NCBI RefSeq assembly: GCF_053078305.1 | Contig: NZ_CP166879.1 | Strand: one strand, 5' to 3' | DNA length: 64,000 bases | Shown here: positions 7,729 through 63,179 of the stretch, piece by piece | Layout of the letters: each line of letters begins with the position of its first letter | Numbering within the stretch: the stretch's first letter is position 1 | Program-made: the position numbers and the translations under genes | The notes under the pieces: model-generated | Told to the model about the DNA's origin: nothing | Seen by the model: only the letters and a program-made list of their open reading frames with translations | The model's database searches: none

Positions 7729-7979
7729 TCCCGGACCTCGTGCACAGGTAGGACCAATTTTTCTGTTCTTAACTCGCAAAACACGCACATCACGTAAGTG
7801 ATTATGTTACATCAATTTAACATTGAGTTAACCAAGACAAGGTCACAGAGCTGGAAAAAAAAATGGTCTGACCGGTAGCTAAAGAGATAGACGAAAACGA
7901 AAAGCCCGCTTAATAACTGTTCACAGAAGCAGCGCGCAAAAATCAGCTGCCACACAACATAACAAAGCGAAGCCTACTC
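7729..7979. promoter_or_regulatory. glcC / glcD divergent promoter region
   Basis: Intergenic region between divergent glcC and glcDEFGB. Confidence 0.5.
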
Positions 7980-14367: not shown

Positions 14368-14721
14368 TAGCGTCAAAAAAGCCCCGGCAAGTTTTATTGT
14401 CGGGGCTATGATAGTAACTGCGGTAGTACATTTATCCCGGAAATAACCGGAGCGATTATCAGGGTTTAACAATATTAAATACCCGTAGCGCATTACTAGC
14501 GGGCCTAAAACAACAATATGGACATCTTAACGATACTCTGCGCCTGCGTGTGCGGAACAGAAACCCTTACCCGATATACTTGTTATGCCAGAGGTAGCAA
14601 TTGCGTTAGCGGCGTACTGTTGCTGTAAAGTATAACGCCTATATTTTACAGTTCAGTCCTCTTTTGCTTATTACAACCTTAAGTATATCAAGCATATAAA
14701 GATAATAAGAGACTGAACAAT

Positions 14722-42437: not shown

Positions 42438-45400
42438 TCAGAAGGTCACATTCAGCGTGGCCTGACCGTTATAGCCTTCAGCGCTGCTGCCGCTGACGCT
42501 GTGGACATAACCTGCCTGAACGCCCAGGGTGATGTTTTCCCGGACACGGGCTTCCAGTCCGGCCTGCAGGTCCAGTGACGTACCATTCTGTGACGGTGAG
42601 AACGTCATGTTACTGCCGGCTGCGGCTGTACCCATGCTCATGTCCCCCCGGGAGCTGAAGGTGCGGATAACAGAAGGCTGTACCCACCAGTTCACCGGCA
42701 GTTCACGCACACTGTGTTTGGCACTGCCGCGCAGGGTGTCACGGGATGAGGTGCCTTTACCAAAGTTCATATCGTTGTGGCTGCCCAGACGGAAGCCGGC
42801 ACGCACATGTTGTGCACTGCCATGCCCGAACTTCACATAACCGGCGTTGTCCTGACCGTCATCCAGGGAGAGTCCCTGCCAGGTGTACTGCAGTTGCGGC
42901 TCCAGCATCAGATTGTCAGTGATACTGAAGGGCAGACCGGTTTCCAGTGAACCCAGCCAGCCCCGGCCCCGGACGCGGAAGTCGTTATTGTCCGATGAGG
43001 CTTTCATGCTGTGGCGGGTTCCCTGGGCCACAATGTCAGCCCACAGGCCGGAGGCGTTGTGTATCAGATTCAGGTATCCGCCCAGGCTGCCGGCATCATC
43101 CCGGACCGTGCCGGCACGGGAGCCGTCATCATCCTTAACATCAACGGAAGAATGGCCTGCAGCACCATACACCCCTGTCGTCAGAGACATACCGGCAACC
43201 TCTGTTCTCATCAGGTCACCCTCCAGACGGACGAAGCCATAGCTGCCGCTGCTTTCCGGCGTGGCCCCACGGACAATACCGCCGTTGTTATCGTGACCGA
43301 GATGGCCGCCCTGAATGCTGAGACGGACGCTGTTATTTTCACCGTTTACACCGGTCTGATGGCTGCGGGAGCCTGCCAGAATCCGGTCATAGTCCATTGC
43401 CTGTGTCAGCATGGAGGCATACAGGGGGACTTCTGCACGATAAGCATTTTCACTGCGCAGATACCAGCTCTCATCACTGTCCCGGTTGAGGGAGTAGTTA
43501 AAGGCCCCGGCCTGCAGCCTGTTCCCCTGGACAAAGGCCCCTTCCTCCGTGGTGGCACCGTTAATGGCTTCCACCACCTGAATACCCTTACCGCTGGTCG
43601 CCAGCCCCGACGCACTGTTGCCGGCGTTCACCATGTTCAGGATGGTTTTTCCGGTTGCCCTGCCGCCGTCAATGACCAGTCTGTCAGCATTGTTCTGTGC
43701 CATATCCGGGCGTACACGCAGGCTGATGGTGCCATTCTGCCCGTTCAGGTTTTTCACTTTCAGGGTTGCCGGTACGAACTTCCCTGTGCGGGTGGAGGTG
43801 AAATGAATCTGTCCGGCATGGCTGAGGTCATCCACCACCGACTGCACCGTGGCGTTATCAGGGATATTCCAGGTGGCACCGGAGGCGAGAGTGACATTCG
43901 TGGGGTCAATGGCACCGTTCAGCACAGTGCTGCCGGTCAGCTTCAGGGCTGTACCGCGCTGAGCAATGACATCCGTGGTGACGGTACTGTCGTTCAGCGT
44001 CAGCGTGCCTTCATTCAGGTTGACGGCTTTCTGGGTGAGTGTGGTGTTGCTGACAGTGAGTGTGCCACTTCCTGATTTTTCCACGCTGCCGTTACCGGTG
44101 AGAGAGCCTCCCTGCAGGAGTGCATCGCCTTCACGGATGGTCAGGGTATCGTTGTTCACCGTCTTCCCGGAAAGGGTAAGTATGGCGCCGTTATTCAGCG
44201 TGGTGGTGCCCGCCAGTGTGCCGCCCCTGGCGGTGAACAGTCCGCCATTTACCGTGGTATCCGTGGCCGTATCACCGGCGTTCAGCGTGAATGAACTGCC
44301 TTTTTCCAGCATCAGGGCATCCGCCTGACCGCCTCCGATACTGAATGCCTTTCCGTCGCTCCGTGTACCACTGACAGCGGCACCGGAATCGGCCAGCAGT
44401 ACACCGCCATTTCCCATGGATACGGTGGTGGCGGTACCACCGTTGCGGACATCCAGCGTTCCGCCATCATCCACACGGGTATTAGTGGCTGTGTGTCCGC
44501 TCAGCACATCCAGACGTCCGCCATTTTCCAGTACGACATTATCAGCTTTACCCTCCACAACAGAGAATGCTCCCAGGCGGTTTGTACCGGTAACGGTTGC
44601 AGCCGTACTGGTAACCAGTGCACCGCCCGTGTTCTGGGTGACATCAGACGCTTTACCGCCGGCATTCACCTGCAGCTTTCCTTTCTGGTTGATGGTGGTA
44701 TGCGCGGCAGTTCCTCCTTCCTTAATCACCTGCCAGCCATCACGGTTTATCAGCGTCTCTGTTGCCGTGCCACCGTTGTGTACATACTGGTTACCCCCCT
44801 CCAGCCGGGTGTTATGTGCCTCTCCGTGTACCGTCTGGTCACCACCGGCGTAAATGAGGGTGTCCCGTGCCATCCCCGAAGACCAGATAACCTGCCGGCC
44901 ATTTTTGTTGATGGTGGTGGATTCAGCCGTCCCTCCGACCATCTGACCGCTGGACACATTTTCAGACTCCGGACCACCTTCTGCACCGGTGTTGACGATG
45001 GTTCCGGTTGCCAGTCCGCCATGTTTTATGGTCTGGTAACCATCCAGGTTAATAATTGTACCGGCAGCTTTCCCTCCCCCGTGTACCCACTGCTCACCTC
45101 TGTTATCCAGCGTGGTGTTCACCGCCAGTCCGTTAAGGCTCTGCCCTCCGCCATCACGAATAACCGTATCACTGGCAGTTCCTCCTGCCTGCACAATCTG
45201 ACGACCATTTGCGGTGACAGTGGTGTTTCTGCCTGTGCCACCCGCGTTTATCCATTGCCCGCCGGTGTTTTCGTCACTGTCCGGCCCCAGCTCAAGCCCG
45301 GTACTGACAGTCACGCCATCAGCTGTTCCGGATACAAACTGGTTGTCATGGTTTACCAGTGTTCCGCCATTCACTGTTTCACCCGGGTGCACAACGATGT

Positions 45401-45560
45401 CAGCAGCCAGCACCGGGAGTGACGTGACCGCGGCAAGAGACAGTGCAACCGCCACACCGCCACGTTTACCCCGTGCGCGGGCCAGTTCGGAGGCAACCAC
45501 GAAAGCGCCCGTAATGTGATTCCATACCAGCCTGTAGCAGGTATTCAGATGTCGTTTCAT
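42438..45560 (-). CDS. flu: antigen 43 self-associating autotransporter adhesin
   Basis: MKRHLNTCYRLVWNHITGAFVVASELARARG extended signal peptide; repetitive beta-helix passenger; C-terminal beta-barrel ending in F. Confidence 0.9.
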   Translation of the reverse strand: MKRHLNTCYRLVWNHITGAFVVASELARARGKRGGVAVALSLAAVTSLPVLAADIVVHPGETVNGGTLVNHDNQFVSGTADGVTVSTGLELGPDSDENTGGQWINAGGTGRNTTVTANGRQIVQAGGTASDTVIRDGGGQSLNGLAVNTTLDNRGEQWVHGGGKAAGTIINLDGYQTIKHGGLATGTIVNTGAEGGPESENVSSGQMVGGTAESTTINKNGRQVIWSSGMARDTLIYAGGDQTVHGEAHNTRLEGGNQYVHNGGTATETLINRDGWQVIKEGGTAAHTTINQKGKLQVNAGGKASDVTQNTGGALVTSTAATVTGTNRLGAFSVVEGKADNVVLENGGRLDVLSGHTATNTRVDDGGTLDVRNGGTATTVSMGNGGVLLADSGAAVSGTRSDGKAFSIGGGQADALMLEKGSSFTLNAGDTATDTTVNGGLFTARGGTLAGTTTLNNGAILTLSGKTVNNDTLTIREGDALLQGGSLTGNGSVEKSGSGTLTVSNTTLTQKAVNLNEGTLTLNDSTVTTDVIAQRGTALKLTGSTVLNGAIDPTNVTLASGATWNIPDNATVQSVVDDLSHAGQIHFTSTRTGKFVPATLKVKNLNGQNGTISLRVRPDMAQNNADRLVIDGGRATGKTILNMVNAGNSASGLATSGKGIQVVEAINGATTEEGAFVQGNRLQAGAFNYSLNRDSDESWYLRSENAYRAEVPLYASMLTQAMDYDRILAGSRSHQTGVNGENNSVRLSIQGGHLGHDNNGGIVRGATPESSGSYGFVRLEGDLMRTEVAGMSLTTGVYGAAGHSSVDVKDDDGSRAGTVRDDAGSLGGYLNLIHNASGLWADIVAQGTRHSMKASSDNNDFRVRGRGWLGSLETGLPFSITDNLMLEPQLQYTWQGLSLDDGQDNAGYVKFGHGSAQHVRAGFRLGSHNDMNFGKGTSSRDTLRGSAKHSVRELPVNWWVQPSVIRTFSSRGDMSMGTAAAGSNMTFSPSQNGTSLDLQAGLEARVRENITLGVQAGYVHSVSGSSAEGYNGQATLNVTF

Positions 45561-45589
45561 CAGCATTTCCTTAATCAGAGTGAGAGTGA

Positions 45590-45625
45590 ATAAAAAAGCC
45601 GGTATCCACAGATGTGGATACCGGC
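45590..45625 (-). terminator. terminator-like hairpin plus T-tract in the flu leader, about 30 nt upstream of the start codon
   Basis: 13-bp inverted repeat gccggtatccaca / tgtggataccggc followed on the minus strand by a 7-T run. Confidence 0.5.
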
Positions 45626-45739
45626 AGGTAAAGGGTTACAGTGCCAGAGGTCCGGCTGACGGAAGTTTCTGACGTGTGGCTCTGTTGTTCCCTGAATGTC
45701 TTTCTGTACGTATCTGTGCATGTTACTGACAAAGGTTAT

Positions 45740-45800
45740 TATTAGCTTATCGATCGATATAAACGATCGATAAAATAGGTATCGATCGTTTTATTCTATT
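45740..45800 (-). promoter_or_regulatory. flu regulatory region with three clustered GATC sites (Dam/OxyR phase-variation switch)
   Basis: GATC at 45752-45755, 45765-45768 and 45784-45787, about 190-230 bp upstream of the flu start. Confidence 0.7.
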
Positions 45801-55820: not shown

Positions 55821-56207
55821 CGTCAGGTGACGCATTGTCACTTCTGACCTGCTACCTGTACGCCGGAATATAATGGTCAGAGAGGCATATTTCGACGCCC
55901 CTAATCTGGGGCGTTTGATTCTGGATGTCTGGAACAATCCGGGCTTTGTGTCACCGGGCGCATCAAAGCAGTACCACCCGGGATGTGGCGCTGGATCGTC
56001 ATTTACCGGACTGCGAAGACATACTTAAAGAGGTGATATGGGCGTTCAGTGATTTTGTCCGCGATAATCGTGGTGTGTATGATCCGGAAGCCCGTTACCC
56101 CGCCGGTAATACCTGGTATCCCGTAACAGGCCAGTTCTGAAAGCACAGCTCAGCAGATTCCCCGCATTCGCACAATCTTCATAAATCTCACAGAGGACAT
56201 TCTGACC

Positions 56208-56516
56208 ATGTTGACTACAACAAGCCACGACAGCGTATTTCTGCGTGCCGATAATTCCCTGATTGACATGAACTATATCACCAGTTTCACCGGTATGACC
56301 GACAGAGGGTTTTATAAGCTGATCAGTGAAGATTCATCAAGCCGGGCCGATCCAGCCGCAGGTATAAAAGCGAAGTGTCACAGTAGATACAGTAACGAAT
56401 CGAAGAATCACGGGGGCAGAAGTATGAAACGTGTTGTGATACCGGTACGCTGGCAATGTTCAACGTGTCAGCGCTGGTATTGTGGCGCTGTTCCCTGGTG
56501 CTGGTCCCCCCCGTGA
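56208..56516 (+). pseudogene. AlpA-like regulator remnant
   Basis: N-terminus DNSLIDMNYITSFTGMTDRGFYKLI parallels AlpA at 50360-50620 (DDQMVDMSFITQLTGLTDKWFYKLI) and then diverges into unrelated sequence. Confidence 0.5.
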
Positions 56517-57712
56517 ATCTTCCTGCGTCCCCTCCGGTCAGCCGGCACTTTGTCATCCTGACTGATTCATCATTCCTTTCATATTGCCAGTCACAGCTGC
56601 TTGCATCGAACCGTACTTGTGTTGATGCGTCTGCACCGACTTAACCAAATTCAACAGAGATAAAATAGTGCAAATCACCGAAGCCTTACTTTCAGAGCCG
56701 GGGGAAATCCGGCGTTTTGTTCAGCAGGCGGTGGATCACTGGCCGCATCTGCTGGCAATCCACTTCACACTTCATTCGACCAGAGTAAATATTGATGATT
56801 ACTAGATTCGTGTATTTTATCAGGCATTTTACTTGCGAATAAATCCCCTTGTTATCCAGCGAAACCACACCGGTAGCTATTACCATATGTCGTAATACAC
56901 TAGTTACAGGAAAAACATGCAGGTTCCGCAATACGTTGTGTGTTGCTGCTTAGTCAGGATCTTTTCTTCCATGCGAGATACGACAACACTTTTGAGGAAG
57001 GATGTTCGTAACTGGTAGAGTTACTACAACAGGCATGGGAGGCTCCGGCTCTGACAGACATTGTACTGTGGAATGTTGTTACAGGTTGGGGCGGCAACCG
57101 TGCCAGGAGACTATGAGCCGTTCACGGCATTAAAGGCCACACTTCAGTCGTTTACATTCCCTGTGGTGGCAGGCATCTTCCGTTAAGGCGTCAGAGCGTT
57201 ACCAACGTTATGTTGTCATGGCTCACCTTTCATAGTCGATGCTTATCTGGTGACTGAAACTAGCCGCAGATAAAGAGTGTGAAGTTGATACCATGGAGTG
57301 GAGTGACGTGCAGGCAGGAGATTCGCTCTATGCAGGGTTGTGAGATGAATTCAAACCGGCTGTCAGCGCCAGTGATATTTGAAGATTCGTCCGGTTGTTA
57401 TCCAGTGTGCATTAAAAACCCAGACATTATGGACAATACAACGGCTTCCATAACAGGGAGGAGCCTGTTTATTATCCGGGCGTAATGACTCACCTTTGTG
57501 GGCTTTTTCCCGTCGCGCTTTTAACGTTGAAGGCATTTTCTGCCTGCCGATTCAGGACAGCGACAAAAGCCATATCAGACTATTGGTCAATGATGACCAG
57601 CGTCTGGAGTAGATGATAAGCCAAATTGATAAGCTGGAATATGTGATGAAAGTGCAACGTAATCAGTCCAATCCGACGATGTTTAACAAGAGTACGGTGT
57701 TTTTTCAGTAAG

Positions 57713-58498
57713 TCATTCGTCTTCTGAATCAGGTGTAATGATCTTTACAGAAGCATTCCGGCAGTGCGTAACATAATCTGCCGGTAACGGACGATCGCTA
57801 ATCAGAACATCAAATGCAGAGAGCGGTGCGAGGCTGGCAGAGGCTACTTCATCGAACAAGGCGTGGCGGGCGAGCAAAATTTTCCGTAGTCCACGGGCCA
57901 TCGCTTTACGCTTAGTGGCAAGATCTTCGGGATTAAACCAGCTGACGCCAAAGTGATCATGTACACCGCTGGCGGAAATAAATATTTTTCGCGGATTGAG
58001 AGAGTCTAATGGCGAAGAGTTACTGGCATCGTAAAAAGCATCACTTCTGGCACGATACGTACCACCACAAAGTATTGCTGTCACATTAGGTTTTTCATTC
58101 AACGCAACAAAGACACGATGTGAGTAACAGATGCCAGTGAAGGTGATTGCATCCGGGATCATGCTTATAACGAGCGGTATCTCCTGGCCATTATCAAAGA
58201 AGATCAGATCATTTTCATTAACCATTCCGGCGGCCAGAATTGCAATAGGTAAGTCATCACGATGATTTCTCGGAACGTCCTGGATTACTGGCATGGATGG
58301 TGCGGGTTTATGCACCATTACAATATAGCCACCCAGTAGGGTCAGTGGCAGAGGTTCATCTTCCTGATGGAGATCGCGACGAATAGTCATTACAGAAACT
58401 TCCAGCATTCGTGCCGCGTCTTTCAAATGGATTCTGTCGGTTTTCTTAAGTATTTCAATCAAACGTCGGATACGCTCTTTTTGCTTCGTTTCCATCAA
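57713..58498 (-). CDS. deoQ: DeoR-family transcriptional regulator of the deoxyribose operon
   Basis: 261 aa with N-terminal DeoR-type helix-turn-helix; divergent from the kinase-permease operon. Confidence 0.75.
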   Translation of the reverse strand: MMETKQKERIRRLIEILKKTDRIHLKDAARMLEVSVMTIRRDLHQEDEPLPLTLLGGYIVMVHKPAPSMPVIQDVPRNHRDDLPIAILAAGMVNENDLIFFDNGQEIPLVISMIPDAITFTGICYSHRVFVALNEKPNVTAILCGGTYRARSDAFYDASNSSPLDSLNPRKIFISASGVHDHFGVSWFNPEDLATKRKAMARGLRKILLARHALFDEVASASLAPLSAFDVLISDRPLPADYVTHCRNASVKIITPDSEDE

Positions 58499-58800
58499 CG
58501 CTCTCTCCGTAAAAATGTTATAAAAATAACATTATGGCATTAGTAAACATTGTTTTAGTTACCATACTATACGACCGACCCTTTGAAATGAAAAGGGTAT
58601 AGACTGCTGAATTTTCGGTATTAATCCTGTTAGGTTGCTTATGATTAGATAGTGTTGGCCTGAGTGATAAGACTGGAAGTCTATTAAATAAACATCGGGT
58701 TGATGTGCTAATCGCGATCTCAGTCACAAATGATGCAAAAGTAACATGCTAATGTTATTTAAATACCATTGTTATGCGAAAGTTTATAAGAGGTAGTGAA

Positions 58801-59721
58801 ATGGACATTGCAGTTATTGGTTCCAATATGGTGGATCTCATTACTTACACTAATCAGATGCCTAAAGAAGGAGAAACTCTGGAAGCACCTGCCTTCAAAA
58901 TCGGATGTGGTGGGAAAGGTGCTAATCAAGCGGTGGCGGCGGCTAAATTGAATTCAAAAGTCCTGATGCTGACTAAAGTAGGTGATGATATTTTTGCGGA
59001 TAATACTATTCGTAATCTTGAATCTTGGGGAATTAATACCACTTATGTTGAGAAAGTCCCCTGTACCAGCAGTGGTGTTGCGCCGATCTTTGTTAATGCT
59101 AACTCGAGCAATAGTATTTTAATAATTAAGGGGGCGAATAAATTTCTTTCCCCGGAAGATATCGATCGAGCTGCAGAAGATCTGAAAAAATGCAAATTGA
59201 TCGTTTTACAACTGGAAGTTCAACTGGAAACAGTTTACCACGCGATTGAGTTTGGTAAGAAAAATGGTATTGAAGTGTTATTAAATCCGGCTCCGGCATT
59301 GCGTGAGTTAGATATGTCTTATGCCTGCAAATGTGATTTCTTTATCCCGAATGAAACAGAACTGGAAATATTAACCGGTATGTCGGTTGATACTTATGAT
59401 CATATTCGTTTGGCCGCACGTTCGTTAGTTGATAAAGGGCTGAACAATATTATTGTTACCATGAGCGAAAAAGGCGCATTATGGATGACCCGTGATCAGG
59501 AAGTCCATGTTCCTGCATTCAAAGTAAATGCTGTTGATACTAGTGGCGCTGGTGACGCATTTATTGGTTGCTTTTCCCATTATTATGTTCAAAGCGGTGA
59601 TGTTGAAGCCGCTTTGAAAAAAGCCGCTCTCTTTGCCGCTTTCAGCGTCACAGGGAAAGGTACGCAATCATCTTATCCGAGTATTGAACAATTTAATGAA
59701 TTTTTAACCTTAAACGAATAA
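58801..59721 (+). CDS. deoK: deoxyribokinase (ribokinase/PfkB family)
   Basis: Start at MDIAVIGS after AGAGG ribosome-binding site; GG dipeptide and C-terminal GAGD motif of PfkB kinases. Confidence 0.75.
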   Translation: MDIAVIGSNMVDLITYTNQMPKEGETLEAPAFKIGCGGKGANQAVAAAKLNSKVLMLTKVGDDIFADNTIRNLESWGINTTYVEKVPCTSSGVAPIFVNANSSNSILIIKGANKFLSPEDIDRAAEDLKKCKLIVLQLEVQLETVYHAIEFGKKNGIEVLLNPAPALRELDMSYACKCDFFIPNETELEILTGMSVDTYDHIRLAARSLVDKGLNNIIVTMSEKGALWMTRDQEVHVPAFKVNAVDTSGAGDAFIGCFSHYYVQSGDVEAALKKAALFAAFSVTGKGTQSSYPSIEQFNEFLTLNE

Positions 59722-59748
59722 TCATCCTGCACAGTTAAAGGTAGCACT

Positions 59749-61065
59749 ATGAACGATAAAAACATCATTCAGATGCCTGATGGGTATCTGAATAAGACTC
59801 CCTTGTTCCAGTTTATTTTGTTATCGTGTTTATTCCCGCTATGGGGATGCGCAGCTGCATTAAATGACATATTAATCACTCAATTCAAAAGTGTATTTTC
59901 GCTAAGTAACTTTGCTTCAGCATTGGTGCAGAGCGCATTTTATGGAGGTTATTTTTTAATTGCAATACCAGCATCCCTTGTGATTAAAAAGACCAGTTAT
60001 AAGGTGGCAATTTTAATTGGCCTGACGCTGTATATTGGTGGTTGTACACTTTTTTTCCCTGCCTCGCATATGGCAACCTACACTATGTTCCTTGCGGCTA
60101 TTTTTGCGATTGCGATTGGCCTGAGCTTCCTTGAAACTGCAGCGAACACATACAGTTCGATGATTGGTCCAAAAGCCTACGCTACATTGCGGCTCAATAT
60201 CAGCCAGACCTTTTATCCGATTGGTGCTGCGTCTGGTATTTTATTGGGCAAATATCTGGTTTTCTCCGAGGGGGAAAGCCTTGAGAAGCAGATGTCCGGA
60301 ATGAACGCCGGGCAAATTCACAACTTTAAGGTGCTGATGTTAGAGAACACCCTTGAACCGTATAAGTATATGATTATGATTCTGGTTGTGGTCATGGTGT
60401 TGTTCCTTTTAACCCGCTTCCCAACCTGTAAAGTGGCACAGACAAGTCACCATAAACGCCCGTCAGCAATGGATACGCTGCGCTATCTGGCTAGAAATCC
60501 GCGCTTTCGTCGTGGTATTGTGGCTCAATTCCTTTATGTGGGTATGCAGGTCGCAGTATGGTCATTTACCATCCGTCTGGCGCTGGAGTTGGGCGATATC
60601 AACGAACGTGATGCTTCAAACTTCATGGTCTACAGCTTTGCCTGCTTCTTTATTGGCAAGTTTATAGCCAACATCCTTATGACACGTTTTAATCCGGAAA
60701 AAGTCCTGATTCTCTATTCCGTTATAGGGGCGCTGTTTCTGGCATATGTTGCACTGGCTCCAAGTTTCAGTGCGGTCTATGTCGCCGTCCTGGTAAGTGT
60801 TTTGTTTGGCCCTTGCTGGGCGACGATCTATGCAGGAACACTGGATACAGTTGATAACCAACATACAGAAATGGCAGGAGCAGTCATTGTTATGGCTATT
60901 GTTGGCGCAGCGGTGGTTCCGGCAATTCAGGGATATATTGCAGATATGTTCCACTCACTACAGCTTTCATTCCTGGTTTCTATGCTCTGTTTTGTCTATG
61001 TCGGTGTCTACTTCTGGCGTGAAAGCAAAGTACGTAATGCACTGGCTGAAGTCACAGAGTCCTGA
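59749..61065 (+). CDS. deoP: deoxyribose permease (FucP-like MFS transporter)
   Basis: 438-aa polytopic membrane protein between the kinase and the mutarotase-like gene. Confidence 0.7.
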   Translation: MNDKNIIQMPDGYLNKTPLFQFILLSCLFPLWGCAAALNDILITQFKSVFSLSNFASALVQSAFYGGYFLIAIPASLVIKKTSYKVAILIGLTLYIGGCTLFFPASHMATYTMFLAAIFAIAIGLSFLETAANTYSSMIGPKAYATLRLNISQTFYPIGAASGILLGKYLVFSEGESLEKQMSGMNAGQIHNFKVLMLENTLEPYKYMIMILVVVMVLFLLTRFPTCKVAQTSHHKRPSAMDTLRYLARNPRFRRGIVAQFLYVGMQVAVWSFTIRLALELGDINERDASNFMVYSFACFFIGKFIANILMTRFNPEKVLILYSVIGALFLAYVALAPSFSAVYVAVLVSVLFGPCWATIYAGTLDTVDNQHTEMAGAVIVMAIVGAAVVPAIQGYIADMFHSLQLSFLVSMLCFVYVGVYFWRESKVRNALAEVTES

Positions 61066-61076
61066 GGAGAATCGTT

Positions 61077-62090
61077 ATGAGTACGCGTATTTATTTGTGG
61101 CGGGCGCTTTTTGGCGAAAAACCTCGTATCTTGCTGGAAAATAGTGATTTTACTGTCACGTCTTTTCGCTATGACAGTGGTGTCGAGGGGCTTAAAATTG
61201 CAAACAGTCGTGGACATTTAATTATTCTTCCCTGGATGGGGCAGATGATTTGGGATGCGCAATTTGATGGACACAGTCTCACCATGTGCAATATGTTTCG
61301 CCAGCCTAAACCGGCGACAGAGGTGATAGAAACCTATGGCTGTTTTGCCTTTCATTCAGGTTTGCTGGCTAATGGCTGCCCATCTGCGGAAGATACTCAT
61401 CTGCTACACGGTGAAATGGCCTGTGCCGCGATGGATGAAGCATGGATGGAATTAGAGGGAGATATGTTACGCCTTACCGGGCGTTACGAGTATGTAAAGG
61501 GATTCGGGCATCATTATCTGGCTCAGCCAGCAGTGGTCCTTCACAAATCCTCTACACTGTTCGATATTAAGATGGCCGTAACCAATCTGGCTTCTGTAGA
61601 TATGCCACTACAATATATGTGCCACATGAATTATGCATATATACCAAATGCTACGTTCAGTCAGAATATACCGGACGAAATATTAAGGTTGCGTGAATCA
61701 GTACCTTCGCATGTTAATCCCACCACTCAGTGGCTGGCGTTTAATCAACGGATTATGCAGGGAGAAGCCTCTCTGTCGACGCTGAATCAACCGGAGTTTT
61801 ATGATCCAGAAATTGTCTTCTTTGCAGACAAACTGGACGCTTACACAGATCAGCCAGAGTTTCGCATGATCGCTCCCGATGGCACTACGTTTGTTACTCG
61901 TTTCTCCAGTGCCGAACTAAATTATGTGACACGCTGGATCCTTTATAACGGCGAGCAGCAGGTAGCCGCCTTTGCATTACCTGCAACCTGTCGGCCTGAG
62001 GGATATCTTGCCGCGCAACGTAATGGCACGCTGATTCAGGTTGCACCGCAGCAAACGCGCACTTTTACAGTCACCACAGGAATTGAATAA
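61077..62090 (+). CDS. deoX: putative deoxyribose mutarotase / aldose epimerase-like protein
   Basis: 337 aa; fourth gene of the recalled deoQ-deoKPX arrangement. Confidence 0.6.
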   Translation: MSTRIYLWRALFGEKPRILLENSDFTVTSFRYDSGVEGLKIANSRGHLIILPWMGQMIWDAQFDGHSLTMCNMFRQPKPATEVIETYGCFAFHSGLLANGCPSAEDTHLLHGEMACAAMDEAWMELEGDMLRLTGRYEYVKGFGHHYLAQPAVVLHKSSTLFDIKMAVTNLASVDMPLQYMCHMNYAYIPNATFSQNIPDEILRLRESVPSHVNPTTQWLAFNQRIMQGEASLSTLNQPEFYDPEIVFFADKLDAYTDQPEFRMIAPDGTTFVTRFSSAELNYVTRWILYNGEQQVAAFALPATCRPEGYLAAQRNGTLIQVAPQQTRTFTVTTGIE

Positions 62091-62111
62091 CCACTTAAGG
62101 CCTGAACAGCG

Positions 62112-62144
62112 GCGCGCTTATCGTTAAGGTAAGCGCGTTTTTTT
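62112..62144 (+). terminator. intrinsic terminator after deoX
   Basis: Stem cgcgctta / taagcgcg with 9-nt loop followed by an 8-T run. Confidence 0.75.
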
Positions 62145-62417
62145 ACCCGCCAGGACAAGACTATGATAGCGTTGCCCTTATAGACGATCACATTATCGTC
62201 CACTCCAAATTTGTGCAACTACTGTAGAGTGGTGAACTCCACAGCTTCTTTTAGGATCTCAACTTCCATTGTTTTCTTACCGAGCAAGCACTGCAACTCT
62301 TTTATTTATTTGTAGTGGTCAACAAAAACTGGTCAGTAAGCGCTCCGCCTGTGACGTCTTGTGATGGTTGTCCTGTCTGGCAACAATCGCGTCCATCTAT
62401 ATTGATGGACACGAACG

Positions 62418-62813
62418 ATGAATTCTCAGACAGCAAAAGATATCACCGGCTTTCGCTCTTATTTGCCAGACGCATTACGTCTAAGATTCGACGAGCAATT
62501 ATCTGTCCGGGCTATCGCCCTGCAGTTAGGTCTCAGTCATTCCACCATTCATAATCTCTTTCAACGATTTAATGCCTCCGGTATTACTTGGCCATTACCT
62601 GAATCACTTTCAGTCGCCCAACTCGATGCCATACTTTATGCCAATAGAAAGAAGGAATTACCTGATGATCCTCAAATCAGCGAAAGCACATGGCGAAAAG
62701 AACGACGAACCTCCTACAGTCGTGAATTTAAAATCAGGCTGGTAAAACTGTTTTCCCCCCTCACTCCGGAACTTCTTAGGGTGCTCATTCGCGAAATGAA
62801 AGGGGGGATCTGA
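62418..62813 (+). CDS. IS66-family accessory protein TnpA (orf1)
   Basis: 131 aa with helix-turn-helix (LGLSHSTIHNLFQRF); stop overlaps TnpB start. Confidence 0.7.
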   Translation: MNSQTAKDITGFRSYLPDALRLRFDEQLSVRAIALQLGLSHSTIHNLFQRFNASGITWPLPESLSVAQLDAILYANRKKELPDDPQISESTWRKERRTSYSREFKIRLVKLFSPLTPELLRVLIREMKGGI

Positions 62814-63160
62814 TGATAACGCTGCCGACCGGTACCAAAATCTGGATCATCGCTGGCATCACAGATATGCGTTGTGGCTTCAACGGCCTGGCTTCGAAGG
62901 TGCAGAACACGCTGAAAGATGACCCGTTCTCCGGGCATATCTTCGTCTTCCGGGGCCGCAGTGGCAAAATGGTGAAAATACTGTGGGCCGATCGTGACGG
63001 GTTATGCCTGTTCTCCAAACGCCTGGAACGGGGCCGCTTCGTCTGGCCGGTAACCCGGGAAGGGAAAGTGCACCTGACGCCAGCTCAGTTATCCATGCTA
63101 CTGGAGGGGATCGCGTGGCAACATCCCAAACGGACAGAACGGCCTGGCATCCGGATATAA
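62813..63160 (+). CDS. IS66-family TnpB (orf2)
   Basis: 115 aa beginning MITLPTGTKIWIIAGITDMRCGFNGLA. Confidence 0.8.
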   Translation: MITLPTGTKIWIIAGITDMRCGFNGLASKVQNTLKDDPFSGHIFVFRGRSGKMVKILWADRDGLCLFSKRLERGRFVWPVTREGKVHLTPAQLSMLLEGIAWQHPKRTERPGIRI

Positions 63161-63179
63161 CCCGTGATAAAACAGGGGA

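Follow-up and report, generated by a model that had tools for sequence, protein, structure and literature searches.

Judged by its sequence, the segment at 57713-62144 of the 64,000-nucleotide stretch of DNA analysed here (the window) is an undamaged copy of deoQ/deoKPX, a gene set already described, with which some E. coli and Salmonella grow on 2-deoxyribose. It corresponds to the deoK operon known from pheV-type islands, and there is therefore nothing novel in the module itself. What is new is a detail at its edges: scraps of ilvN and uhpA are still attached to deoQKPX. I consider it very probable that the region combines an intact and probably functional deoQ/deoKPX copy, an Escherichia-like chromosomal capture and a later, private IS66 insertion (Table 1). 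Published work places the deoK operon on pheV islands, alongside vpe and Ag43, and credits it with promoting colonisation of the gut (PMC6455142; PMC7545054). The module is present, with the same truncated ends, in 1,593 of 5,426 complete E. coli genomes (~29%).

Table 1. Features of the deoQ/deoKPX module and its borders, in window coordinates.
Feature	Position	Strand	Description
ilvN' remnant	57474-57711	+	3'-terminal 238 nt of the gene for the acetolactate synthase small subunit, to the TAA stop
deoQ	57713-58495	-	DeoR-family repressor of the module (predicted), 260 aa
Divergent regulatory region	58496-58800	.	305 bp; alignment of 22 orthologous intergenic regions
Palindrome	58515-58532		ATGTTAT-N4-ATAACAT; conserved block
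Putative -10 hexamer for deoQ	within 58565-58572	-	TATAGT; conserved block, promoter-like site
CRP-like site	58710-58731		AATCGCGATCTCAGTCACAAAT; conserved block
Palindrome	58742-58757		TAACAT-N4-ATGTTA; conserved block
Ribosome-binding site	58788-58797		AAGAGGTAGT; conserved block
deoK	58801-59721	+	PfkB/ribokinase-family deoxyribokinase (predicted), 306 aa
deoP	59749-61065	+	FucP-type MFS permease, 438 aa; presumed deoxyribose/H+ symporter
deoX	61077-62090	+	DUF4432 protein, predicted galactose-mutarotase-like fold, 337 aa
Intrinsic terminator of deoKPX	62112-62144 (also placed at 62111-62146)	+	Homologous to the K-12 ilvN-uhpA intergenic terminator
'uhpA remnant	62163-62224	+	~62 nt from the 5' end of uhpA (response regulator), frameshifted
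IS3-family transposase orfA fragment	62225-62335	-	tblastx 82-85% over 26-28 aa to IS3-family transposase genes of L087 and L001
IS66-family element	62336-64000, runs past window end	+	Inverted repeat begins GTAAGCGCTCC
tnpA of IS66-family element	62418-62813
tnpB of IS66-family element	62813-63160
tnpC of IS66-family element	from ~63180

The preliminary description of this DNA drew a DeoR-family regulator divergent from a ribokinase-family kinase, a FucP-like permease and a mutarotase-like gene, and likened their content and order to the known deoxyribose operon. Both observations hold: all four ORFs are intact and full length, and they share the order and orientation of the Salmonella diarizonae genes at 82-96% protein identity (DeoQ 82%, DeoK 95%, DeoP 96%, DeoX 83%). 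The arrangement recurs in more than 40 loci. The deoQ ORF is listed as 57713-58498 on the minus strand, with a conserved ATG at 58495; the start of the kinase ORF, listed as 58774-59721 on the plus strand, was set at 58801 by a conserved ATG and the ribosome-binding site. By layout deoK-deoP-deoX is one transcription unit, with gaps of 27 and 11 bp, one terminator after deoX and deoQ divergent. DeoQ (WP_001298267.1), DeoK (WP_000350265.1, found in STEC, NCTC86 and ST131) and DeoP each match a widespread E. coli allele exactly, and DeoX differs by a single substitution, T152A.

DeoQ contains the Pfam domains HTH_DeoR and DeoRC, is 38% identical to K-12 DeoR and falls slightly short of the cut-off of the DeoR equivalog model (231.9 against 244 bits). 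RefSeq names the remaining genes ribokinase (rbsK), L-fucose permease (fucP) and aldose epimerase, and PGAP uses names of the rbsK/fucP type in thousands of genomes. A ribose/fucose module would also agree with the broad equivalog models that the kinase and permease pass (TIGR02152, ribokinase, E 1.7e-110; TIGR00885, fucP, 321.5 bits, E 9.6e-96, the latter protein also matching Pfam MFS_1) and with the phosphorylation of ribose by Salmonella DeoK (PMC13432705). However, both proteins fail the enterobacterial models, the kinase scoring 251.9 bits against RbsK (PRK11142, cut-off 341) and the permease 283 bits against FucP (PRK10133, cut-off 427). The kinase is 97% identical to its Citrobacter ortholog, and while it shares just 37% with K-12 RbsK, it shares 95% with the ortholog of the genetically defined Salmonella DeoK, which leaves its identification as DeoK standing. 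Synteny with deoQKPX is complete, and S. Typhimurium mutants lacking deoK (STM3793) do not grow on deoxyribose (PMC13432705). I would thus give the ribose/fucose names next to no weight as a guide to function.

DeoX matches Pfam DUF4432 and has no PDB relatives detectable by sequence, and a profile comparison with E. coli GalM gave no match (hhalign probability 1.5%). Its AlphaFold2 model (pLDDT 82.7, pTM 0.84) finds as top Foldseek match 3ty1, a putative aldose 1-epimerase (E 2.3e-13, TM 0.75), with GalM enzymes next; E values across 3ty1 and the GalM structures run from 2e-13 to 1e-6. On this model, DeoX is predicted to have the mutarotase beta-sandwich fold. Its invariant His and Glu residues include H183, H212 and E308; any correspondence of these to the catalytic His/His/Glu of GalM would be conjectural.

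I infer the function of deoQKPX here from orthology with Salmonella and E. coli AL862/55989, for which the steps are set out in the literature. DeoP would import deoxyribose; DeoX, with its mutarotase-like fold, would probably interconvert ring forms or anomers, supplying the substrate of the kinase; and DeoK would convert deoxyribose to deoxyribose-5-phosphate, from which DeoC, a core aldolase whose gene lies outside the window, would yield acetaldehyde and glyceraldehyde-3-phosphate. DeoQ would repress deoKPX at TGTTA/TAACA-type palindromes until deoxyribose appears, and the CRP-like site may provide catabolite control of deoKPX. Footprinting finds the candidate promoter, operator, CRP and ribosome-binding blocks kept across 22 species; the palindromes are plausibly DeoQ/DeoR operators and the CRP-like block a CRP site. 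The strong terminator previously noted after deoX proved real: a hairpin with a 12-bp stem, including six G-C pairs, followed by a T-run, with a folding energy of -25.4 kcal/mol (z = -2.84) that none of the shuffled sequences equalled. One feature counts against function, namely that the -10 upstream of deoK reads AAATAC in E. coli versus a conserved TAATAT in other genera. The AAATAC variant is common to E. coli strains, themselves reported as deoxyribose users.

This unusual -10, the low GC3 of the module and the pseudogenes and IS debris around it might suggest a decaying, non-functional island passenger. Against this, the four ORFs are intact, the DeoK protein is 100% conserved across divergent E. 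coli copies despite DNA differences of up to 2.7%, and the regulatory motifs of the module are conserved; I find decay very unlikely.

The module lies in a conserved block of 4.75 kb (57474-62224) that reads ilvN'-deoQ-deoKPX-'uhpA. More than 25 enterobacterial species carry ilvB-ilvN-deoQ-deoKPX on the chromosome, with uhpA-uhpB after deoX wherever these were detected. Because scraps of ilvN and uhpA stand at its two ends and those species hold ilvBN-deoQKPX-uhpAB in the chromosome, the module is a relocated chromosomal locus, a captured fragment of an enterobacterial chromosome. The left-end truncation is the same in every E. coli copy and in all eight distinct contexts compared (8/8), and deoQ stands beside intact ilvBN in 0/5,426 complete E. 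coli genomes. A single capture of the block onto island DNA, followed by spread among E. coli islands, is the very probable course of events, and the donor most likely belonged to the Escherichia lineage rather than to Salmonella.

The left-hand scrap bears on the donor. A 1-nt deletion and in-frame stops make a pseudogene of the ilvN' remnant, and RefSeq labels it as such ('acetolactate synthase small subunit'). It agrees with positions 53-291 of K-12 ilvN at 217/239 (91%) and with native E. coli ilvN genes at 90.8-92.1%, against 73-82% for Citrobacter, Salmonella and other genera. Its differences from K-12 number 10 at non-third and 11 at third codon positions, versus 7 and 28-37 between functional ilvN pairs, a pattern that points to the decay of a sequence like that of E. 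coli. The right-hand remnant does not help to place the origin, being 85% identical to K-12 and 83-86% to Salmonella and Citrobacter. The K-12 alignment there (62088-62224, 120/141) starts precisely with the stop codons, pairing the TAA of deoX with that of ilvN, and alignments to at least 13 other enterobacterial chromosomes all stop at 62224; the 3' end of the 'uhpA remnant marks the limit of the captured chromosomal block. In K-12, the ilvN stop joins directly onto the terminator that is found after deoX elsewhere.

The accepted view in the literature is that E. coli obtained the deoK operon from S. enterica by transfer (PMC5382810). A recent horizontal transfer of this kind would fit the presence of a deoQKPX cluster at ilvN-uhpA in Salmonella and the closeness of the module proteins (82-96%). 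However, per-gene DNA identity to Salmonella (S. diarizonae DNA only) is just 75-83%, as it is for the vertically inherited K-12 ilvB (82%) and uhpB (82%), and the Citrobacter module is as near as that of Salmonella, or nearer. The tree of deoKPX follows that of ilvB, and the E. coli module forms a separate branch outside Salmonella rather than nested within it. The ilvN scrap, likewise, is 91% identical to E. coli ilvN versus 77% to Salmonella ilvN. Import from Salmonella therefore seems improbable.

By a small degree I favour the fuller reading that Escherichia's own ilvN-deoQKPX-uhpA was copied once to an island and its chromosomal locus cleanly deleted, with no import from Salmonella, and that IS66-family elements repeatedly strike a hot spot beyond the module. 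If true, an ancestral core pathway would persist in ~29% of E. coli solely as mobile cargo. Two findings count against an Escherichia origin. The native ilvN-deoQKPX-uhpA arrangement was found in no living Escherichia among species representatives. Moreover, the GC3 of the module (34-47%) lies 10-20 points under that of its orthologs, and also under that of the E. coli ilvBN genes; this low value is not accounted for, because neutral decay of ilvN' amounts to only ~6%.

The module had earlier been placed inside a tRNA-Phe island. The island begins directly after yghD/gspM, at about 33.5-33.6 kb of the window, and in the syntenic STEC17-190 it ends at an integrase and tRNA-Phe beside yqgA, ~68 kb past the module; I infer the pheV location from this synteny. 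The tRNA itself is not visible, since ARAGORN finds none in the 64-kb window. The module had also been described as flanked by IS66, which is true of one flank, because a single IS66-family copy (Pfam TnpB_IS66, LZ_Tnp_IS66, zf-IS66 and DDE_Tnp_IS66) lies on the right and no second copy is found in the 64-kb window. Between the module and this element, the IS3-family fragment has the look of old island scar tissue.

That the neighbouring IS66 may have contributed to acquisition was part of the same description, and an element that brought the module into the island, or formed a composite transposon around it, might be suspected from its abutting the module at 62336. IS66-family copies likewise lie beside the module in ST131, and uninterrupted relatives hold an old IS66-family remnant ~90 bp past the insertion site. 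But a single copy does not make a composite, and the module-IS66 junction of this copy occurs in 0/5,426 complete E. coli genomes while 1,593 of them carry the module, so that the element is a late, private insertion and not the vehicle. It inserted 111 bp beyond the 'uhpA scrap, and its empty target site, in which AAAAACTGGTCA runs directly into CAATTTCAG, is uninterrupted in two relatives (L001 and L087). In ST131 the insertion is of another IS, ISEc23, which points the other way, sits 5 bp off and has its own 8-bp duplication; the two insertions are independent late hits. For the copy described here, a part for IS66 in the acquisition of the module is largely refuted, and I find that reading very unlikely.

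Among known systems, the module resembles the Salmonella enterica deoQKPX regulon, which has these four genes arranged identically, a conserved divergent control region of palindromic putative operators and a CRP-like site, and the same terminator after deoX. In Salmonella and more than 25 other enterobacterial species, however, the cluster is chromosomal, between ilvN and uhpA, whereas the present copy sits on a genomic island and retains just 238 nt of ilvN at one end and 62 nt of uhpA at the other, at ~80% DNA identity to Salmonella and with much lower GC3 (34-47% versus 53-65%). The E. coli rbsDACBK-R system is another parallel: it also pairs a PfkB-family pentose kinase, 37% identical to DeoK here, with an extra step of sugar-ring isomerisation (by RbsD there, by DeoX as proposed here), but it uses an ABC transporter and a LacI-family regulator in place of an MFS symporter and a DeoR-family regulator. 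RbsD belongs to a protein family other than the mutarotase-like beta-sandwich predicted for DeoX. Salmonella DeoK and RbsK can partially substitute for each other (PMC13432705). Finally, the deoK operons of E. coli pheV islands (AL862 PAI, LAC PAI of LEE-negative STEC and ROD 40 of NCTC 86) are the same module, at 97.3-99.4% DNA identity and with identical DeoK. They share its neighbours (Ag43, YeeR-like, CP4-57-type and zinc-ribbon genes) and its anchoring at the yghD/pheV locus; in relatives the module is followed by the remnant of an IS and by the vpe PTS operon, whereas in the copy described here the private IS66-family insertion comes between the module and what follows, and DeoX carries the T152A change.

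All four open reading frames of the deoQ/deoKPX module are intact, match their families in NCBIfam and Pfam, and keep the gene order and orientation of Salmonella. The module lies where the preliminary description had placed it. DeoQ belongs to the DeoR family (HTH_DeoR and DeoRC), scores slightly below the cut-off of the DeoR model itself (231.9 bits, cut-off 244), and, at 38% identity to DeoR, is a DeoR paralog. DeoK is a member of the PfkB/ribokinase family (TIGR02152, 369 bits), DeoP a FucP-type MFS permease (TIGR00885, 321.5 bits), and DeoX a DUF4432 protein. DeoK does not cluster with RbsK, since it is 95% identical to its Salmonella diarizonae ortholog (and 97% to that of Citrobacter) but shares just 37% identity with RbsK of E. 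coli K-12. DeoP, DeoX and DeoQ are 96%, 83% and 82% identical to the Salmonella proteins, respectively. A 2026 paper confirms DeoK as STM3793 and finds that S. Typhimurium without deoK does not grow on deoxyribose (PMC13432705). The module here is probably functional in deoxyribose use. The PDB holds no structure of DeoK, and its nearest solved structures by sequence are the mouse and human ribokinases (216 bits), ahead of E. coli RbsK (170 bits).

Features of the module, its flanks and the rest of the window
Feature	Position	Strand	Details
sRNA C0719 match	14422-14643	-	Rfam, above gathering score, 299 bits
Ag43-like ORF	42438-45566	-	
'IS102 RNA' match	45585-45789	-	Rfam, above gathering score, 253 bits; directly upstream of the Ag43-like ORF
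ilvN' remnant	57474-57711		238 nt of ilvN 3' end; K-12 ilvN match 217/239, ends at its TAA
deoQ	57713-58495	-	260 aa, intact; ORF list starts at TTG 58498, conserved ATG at 58495
Inverted repeat ATGTTAT-N4-ATAACAT	58515-58532		conserved in spacer alignment
TATAGT -10 element for deoQ	about 58565-58572		spacer alignment and promoter scan
CRP-like site AATCGCGATCTCAGTCACAAAT	58710-58731		conserved in spacer alignment
Inverted repeat TAACAT-N4-ATGTTA (second)	58742-58757		conserved in spacer alignment
deoK ribosome-binding site	from 58788		conserved in spacer alignment
deoK	58801-59721	+	306 aa, intact; mechanical ORF from 58774; conserved ribosome-binding site and ATG at 58788-58803
deoP	59749-61065	+	438 aa, intact (ORF list)
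deoX	61077-62090	+	337 aa, intact (ORF list)
Terminator hairpin	62111-62146		12 pairs and T-run; 3' of deoX
K-12 ilvN-uhpA spacer with terminator hairpin, then first ~62 nt of uhpA	3' of deoX to 62224		120/141 identical
IS3-family orfA fragment	62225-62335	-	between 'uhpA scrap and IS66 insertion
IS66-family element	62336 onward, runs off window		begins GTAAGCGCTCC; TnpB_IS66, LZ_Tnp_IS66, zf-IS66, DDE_Tnp_IS66

RefSeq labels deoK, deoP and deoX as 'rbsK', 'fucP' and 'aldose 1-epimerase family protein', respectively, and PGAP gives 'rbsK: ribokinase' and 'fucP: L-fucose:H+ symporter permease' throughout the annotated E. coli records that were inspected. Because DeoK and DeoP score below the cut-offs of the enterobacterial RbsK and FucP models, respectively, the first two names are over-assignments, a systematic misnaming that conceals the deoxyribose phenotype from annotation-based metabolic models. 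For DeoX, PDB sequences gave no match at E <= 1 and a profile of 28 orthologs gave no alignment signal against E. coli GalM; unlike these comparisons, a fold search was informative. The AlphaFold2 model built from the 28-ortholog alignment is confident (pLDDT 82.7, pTM 0.84), and Foldseek matches it first to the putative aldose 1-epimerase 3ty1 (E 2.3e-13, TM 0.75) and next to GalM of Bacillus, Lactococcus and human. The model places DeoX in the galactose-mutarotase fold, and the earlier term 'mutarotase-like' suits it at the level of predicted fold only. Residues H183, H212 and E308 of DeoX are invariant. By analogy with RbsD for ribose, DeoX might supply the kinase with the proper ring or anomeric form of deoxyribose.

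The regulatory blocks in the table come from an alignment of the deoQ-deoK spacer (305 bp) with 21 orthologs. The TGTTA/TAACA half-sites of its palindromes resemble the DeoR operator. In Salmonella, deoQKPX reportedly has divergent promoters, three DeoQ operators and extra repression by DeoR, and catabolite repression is said to hit deoKPX only. Just upstream of deoK, a candidate -10 element reads AAATAC in all E. coli copies and TAATAT in other genera.

Similarity to other species extends past the genes, from 57474 to 62224 (BLAST, 80 non-E. coli loci), and both extensions are pieces of familiar chromosomal genes. On the left is an ilvN remnant, broken by in-frame stops and by the loss of 1 nt. 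On the right, the stop codons of deoX and K-12 ilvN line up in the alignment, and behind them come the K-12 ilvN-uhpA spacer and the start of uhpA. The strong terminator described earlier at the operon end is borne out by folding (-25.4 kcal/mol, with 0 of 200 shuffles folding as well), and, given that alignment and the spacer behind it, is the one that ends the ilvBN operon in K-12. In more than 25 species, including Citrobacter, Salmonella, Raoultella, Klebsiella indica, Leclercia, Silvania, Kosakonia, Trabulsiella and Phytobacter, ilvB-ilvN lies directly upstream of deoQ-deoKPX, and uhpA-uhpB lies 3' of deoX wherever detected. Aligned with those species, K-12 shows a gap of 4.38 kb with clean edges at the stop codon of ilvN. 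Since ilvBN and uhpAB flank the module in so many species and scraps of both remain here, the island module is a chromosomal fragment, ilvN'-deoQKPX-'uhpA. This derivation of the flanks and terminator from the ilvN-uhpA locus is the main addition to the preliminary description. Further left (56400-57473), tblastx turned up neither IS nor gene homology apart from colinear island copies.

The left-end truncation is common to all E. coli copies of the module. The same left end recurs in eight distinct contexts that encode the exact DeoK protein, all of them keeping at least 57027-62094, and the native chromosomal arrangement is absent from 10 distinct contexts of that protein. Used as a query, a chimera of the K-12 ilvB/ilvN 5' end and the island ilvN'-deoQ found deoQ beside an intact ilvBN in 0 of 5,426 complete genomes of E. 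coli. The same truncated left end in all copies, together with this lack of a native locus, indicates a single capture event followed by spread, and the ilvN and uhpA scraps are its fixed molecular signature. The module is present in 1,593 of the 5,426 genomes, at 97.3-99.4% DNA identity. The DeoQ, DeoK and DeoP of the window are identical to the STEC1585 alleles, NCTC 86 and one ST131 strain share the identical DeoK as well, and DeoX has a single substitution, T152A. Clusters of deoK-deoP-deoX also occur well beyond Enterobacteriaceae, in Providencia, Moellerella, Edwardsiella, Aeromonas, Pasteurellaceae and Bacillus methanolicus (comparison loci L046-L082; proteins 57-92% identical). DeoX is always accompanied by DeoP, the gene order in B. 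methanolicus PB1 is deoP-deoX-deoK, and in Proteus deoQ and deoK were the only module genes detected.

Where was the module captured? The textbook view, stated in PMC5382810, is that Salmonella was the source, and the ilvN and uhpA scraps put this in question. Identity of the ilvN scrap is 91% with the E. coli gene and only 73-82% with ilvN of the other genera. Its 21 substitutions divide almost evenly between first or second (10) and third (11) codon positions, whereas comparisons of functional ilvN genes show 7 first- or second-position against 28-37 third-position differences, and 13 of the 21 run from G/C to A/T. The scrap thus looks like an E. coli-like gene in neutral decay. Per-gene DNA identity of the module to Salmonella and Citrobacter is 75-84%, on a par with what K-12 genes show against these genomes (82-84% for ilvB and 80-83% for uhpB). 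The deoKPX and ilvB trees built by neighbour joining agree in shape, and the E. coli module forms its own branch within the Escherichia/Salmonella/Citrobacter group. A recent import is not favoured by the sequence, and I lean slightly towards an origin in the Escherichia lineage. Against such an origin, the low GC3 of the module (34-47%) exceeds what the ~6% decay of the ilvN scrap can explain, and no living Escherichia with native ilvN-deoQKPX-uhpA was found among GTDB species representatives. The right-hand 'uhpA scrap does not discriminate, being too short and too conserved, and was dropped as an origin marker. By gene, GC3 is 0.34 in deoK, 0.42 in deoQ, 0.45 in deoX and 0.47 in deoP; for comparison, the Citrobacter and Salmonella orthologs have 0.50-0.67 and the K-12 ilvBN genes 0.60-0.64. 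If true, an Escherichia origin would illustrate, on a small scale, how a core locus can persist solely as cargo of an island; the argument is a modest refinement that merits a note and falls short of a discovery.

The suggestion that IS66 contributed to acquisition is not supported. The junction between module and IS66 has 0 matches among complete E. coli genomes, relatives carry the unbroken target sequence (...AAAAACTGGTCA|CAATTTCAG), and self-BLAST found no second IS66 copy in the window. With a private junction and a single copy, the element at 62336 is a late, private insertion, not the vehicle. The ST131 strain MB1341 carries a different IS66-family element, ISEc23, inserted in opposite orientation just 5 bp upstream and marked by a separate 8-bp target duplication (CAAAAACT); two independent insertions so close together suggest that this may be a local insertion hot spot. 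The positions concerned are 62320-62345 in the window and 7850-7865 and 10383-10400 in L088, a locus from another genome. Uninterrupted relatives retain an old IS66-family remnant ~90 bp beyond the insertion site. For the original capture, the older IS3/IS66 scars are candidates, rather than the intact IS66.

The window runs from glc through sslE, gsp (type II secretion) and yghD into island DNA from ~33.6 kb, with CbtA/CbeA, Ag43 and YeeR-like genes. Its chromosomal part (glc, sslE and gsp; 1-42000) reaches a best identity of 98.5% among the 5,426 complete E. coli genomes, so its source lineage is poorly represented there; the stretch 24000-42000 is only ~96% identical to them. About 487 bp (55994-56480) are missing from the otherwise colinear STEC1585 and STEC17-190 islands, in whose alignment 55993 is followed directly by 56481. 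The earlier label 'tRNA-Phe island' is reasonable, although ARAGORN found no tRNA in the 64-kb window: in the syntenic STEC17-190 the island runs ~68 kb beyond the module to a tyrosine integrase and a tRNA-Phe beside yqgA, which is pheV. In most contexts (loci L091-L099, L001, L084 and L087 of other genomes) deoX is followed by the same IS remnant, the ascorbate-type PTS operon vpe and a regulator of the LacI family, so vpe usually travels with deoQKPX; here, whatever follows is masked by the inserted IS66 and by the end of the window.

The module is an accessory operon that is well known, and its setting is the usual one. Deoxyribose catabolism favours gut colonisation by pathogenic E. coli, according to PMC6455142, which makes the module a known niche factor whose presence on a pheV island is expected. 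Published pheV islands, as described in PMC6455142 and PMC7545054, carry deoK, vpe and Ag43, and the island in the window agrees with that description.
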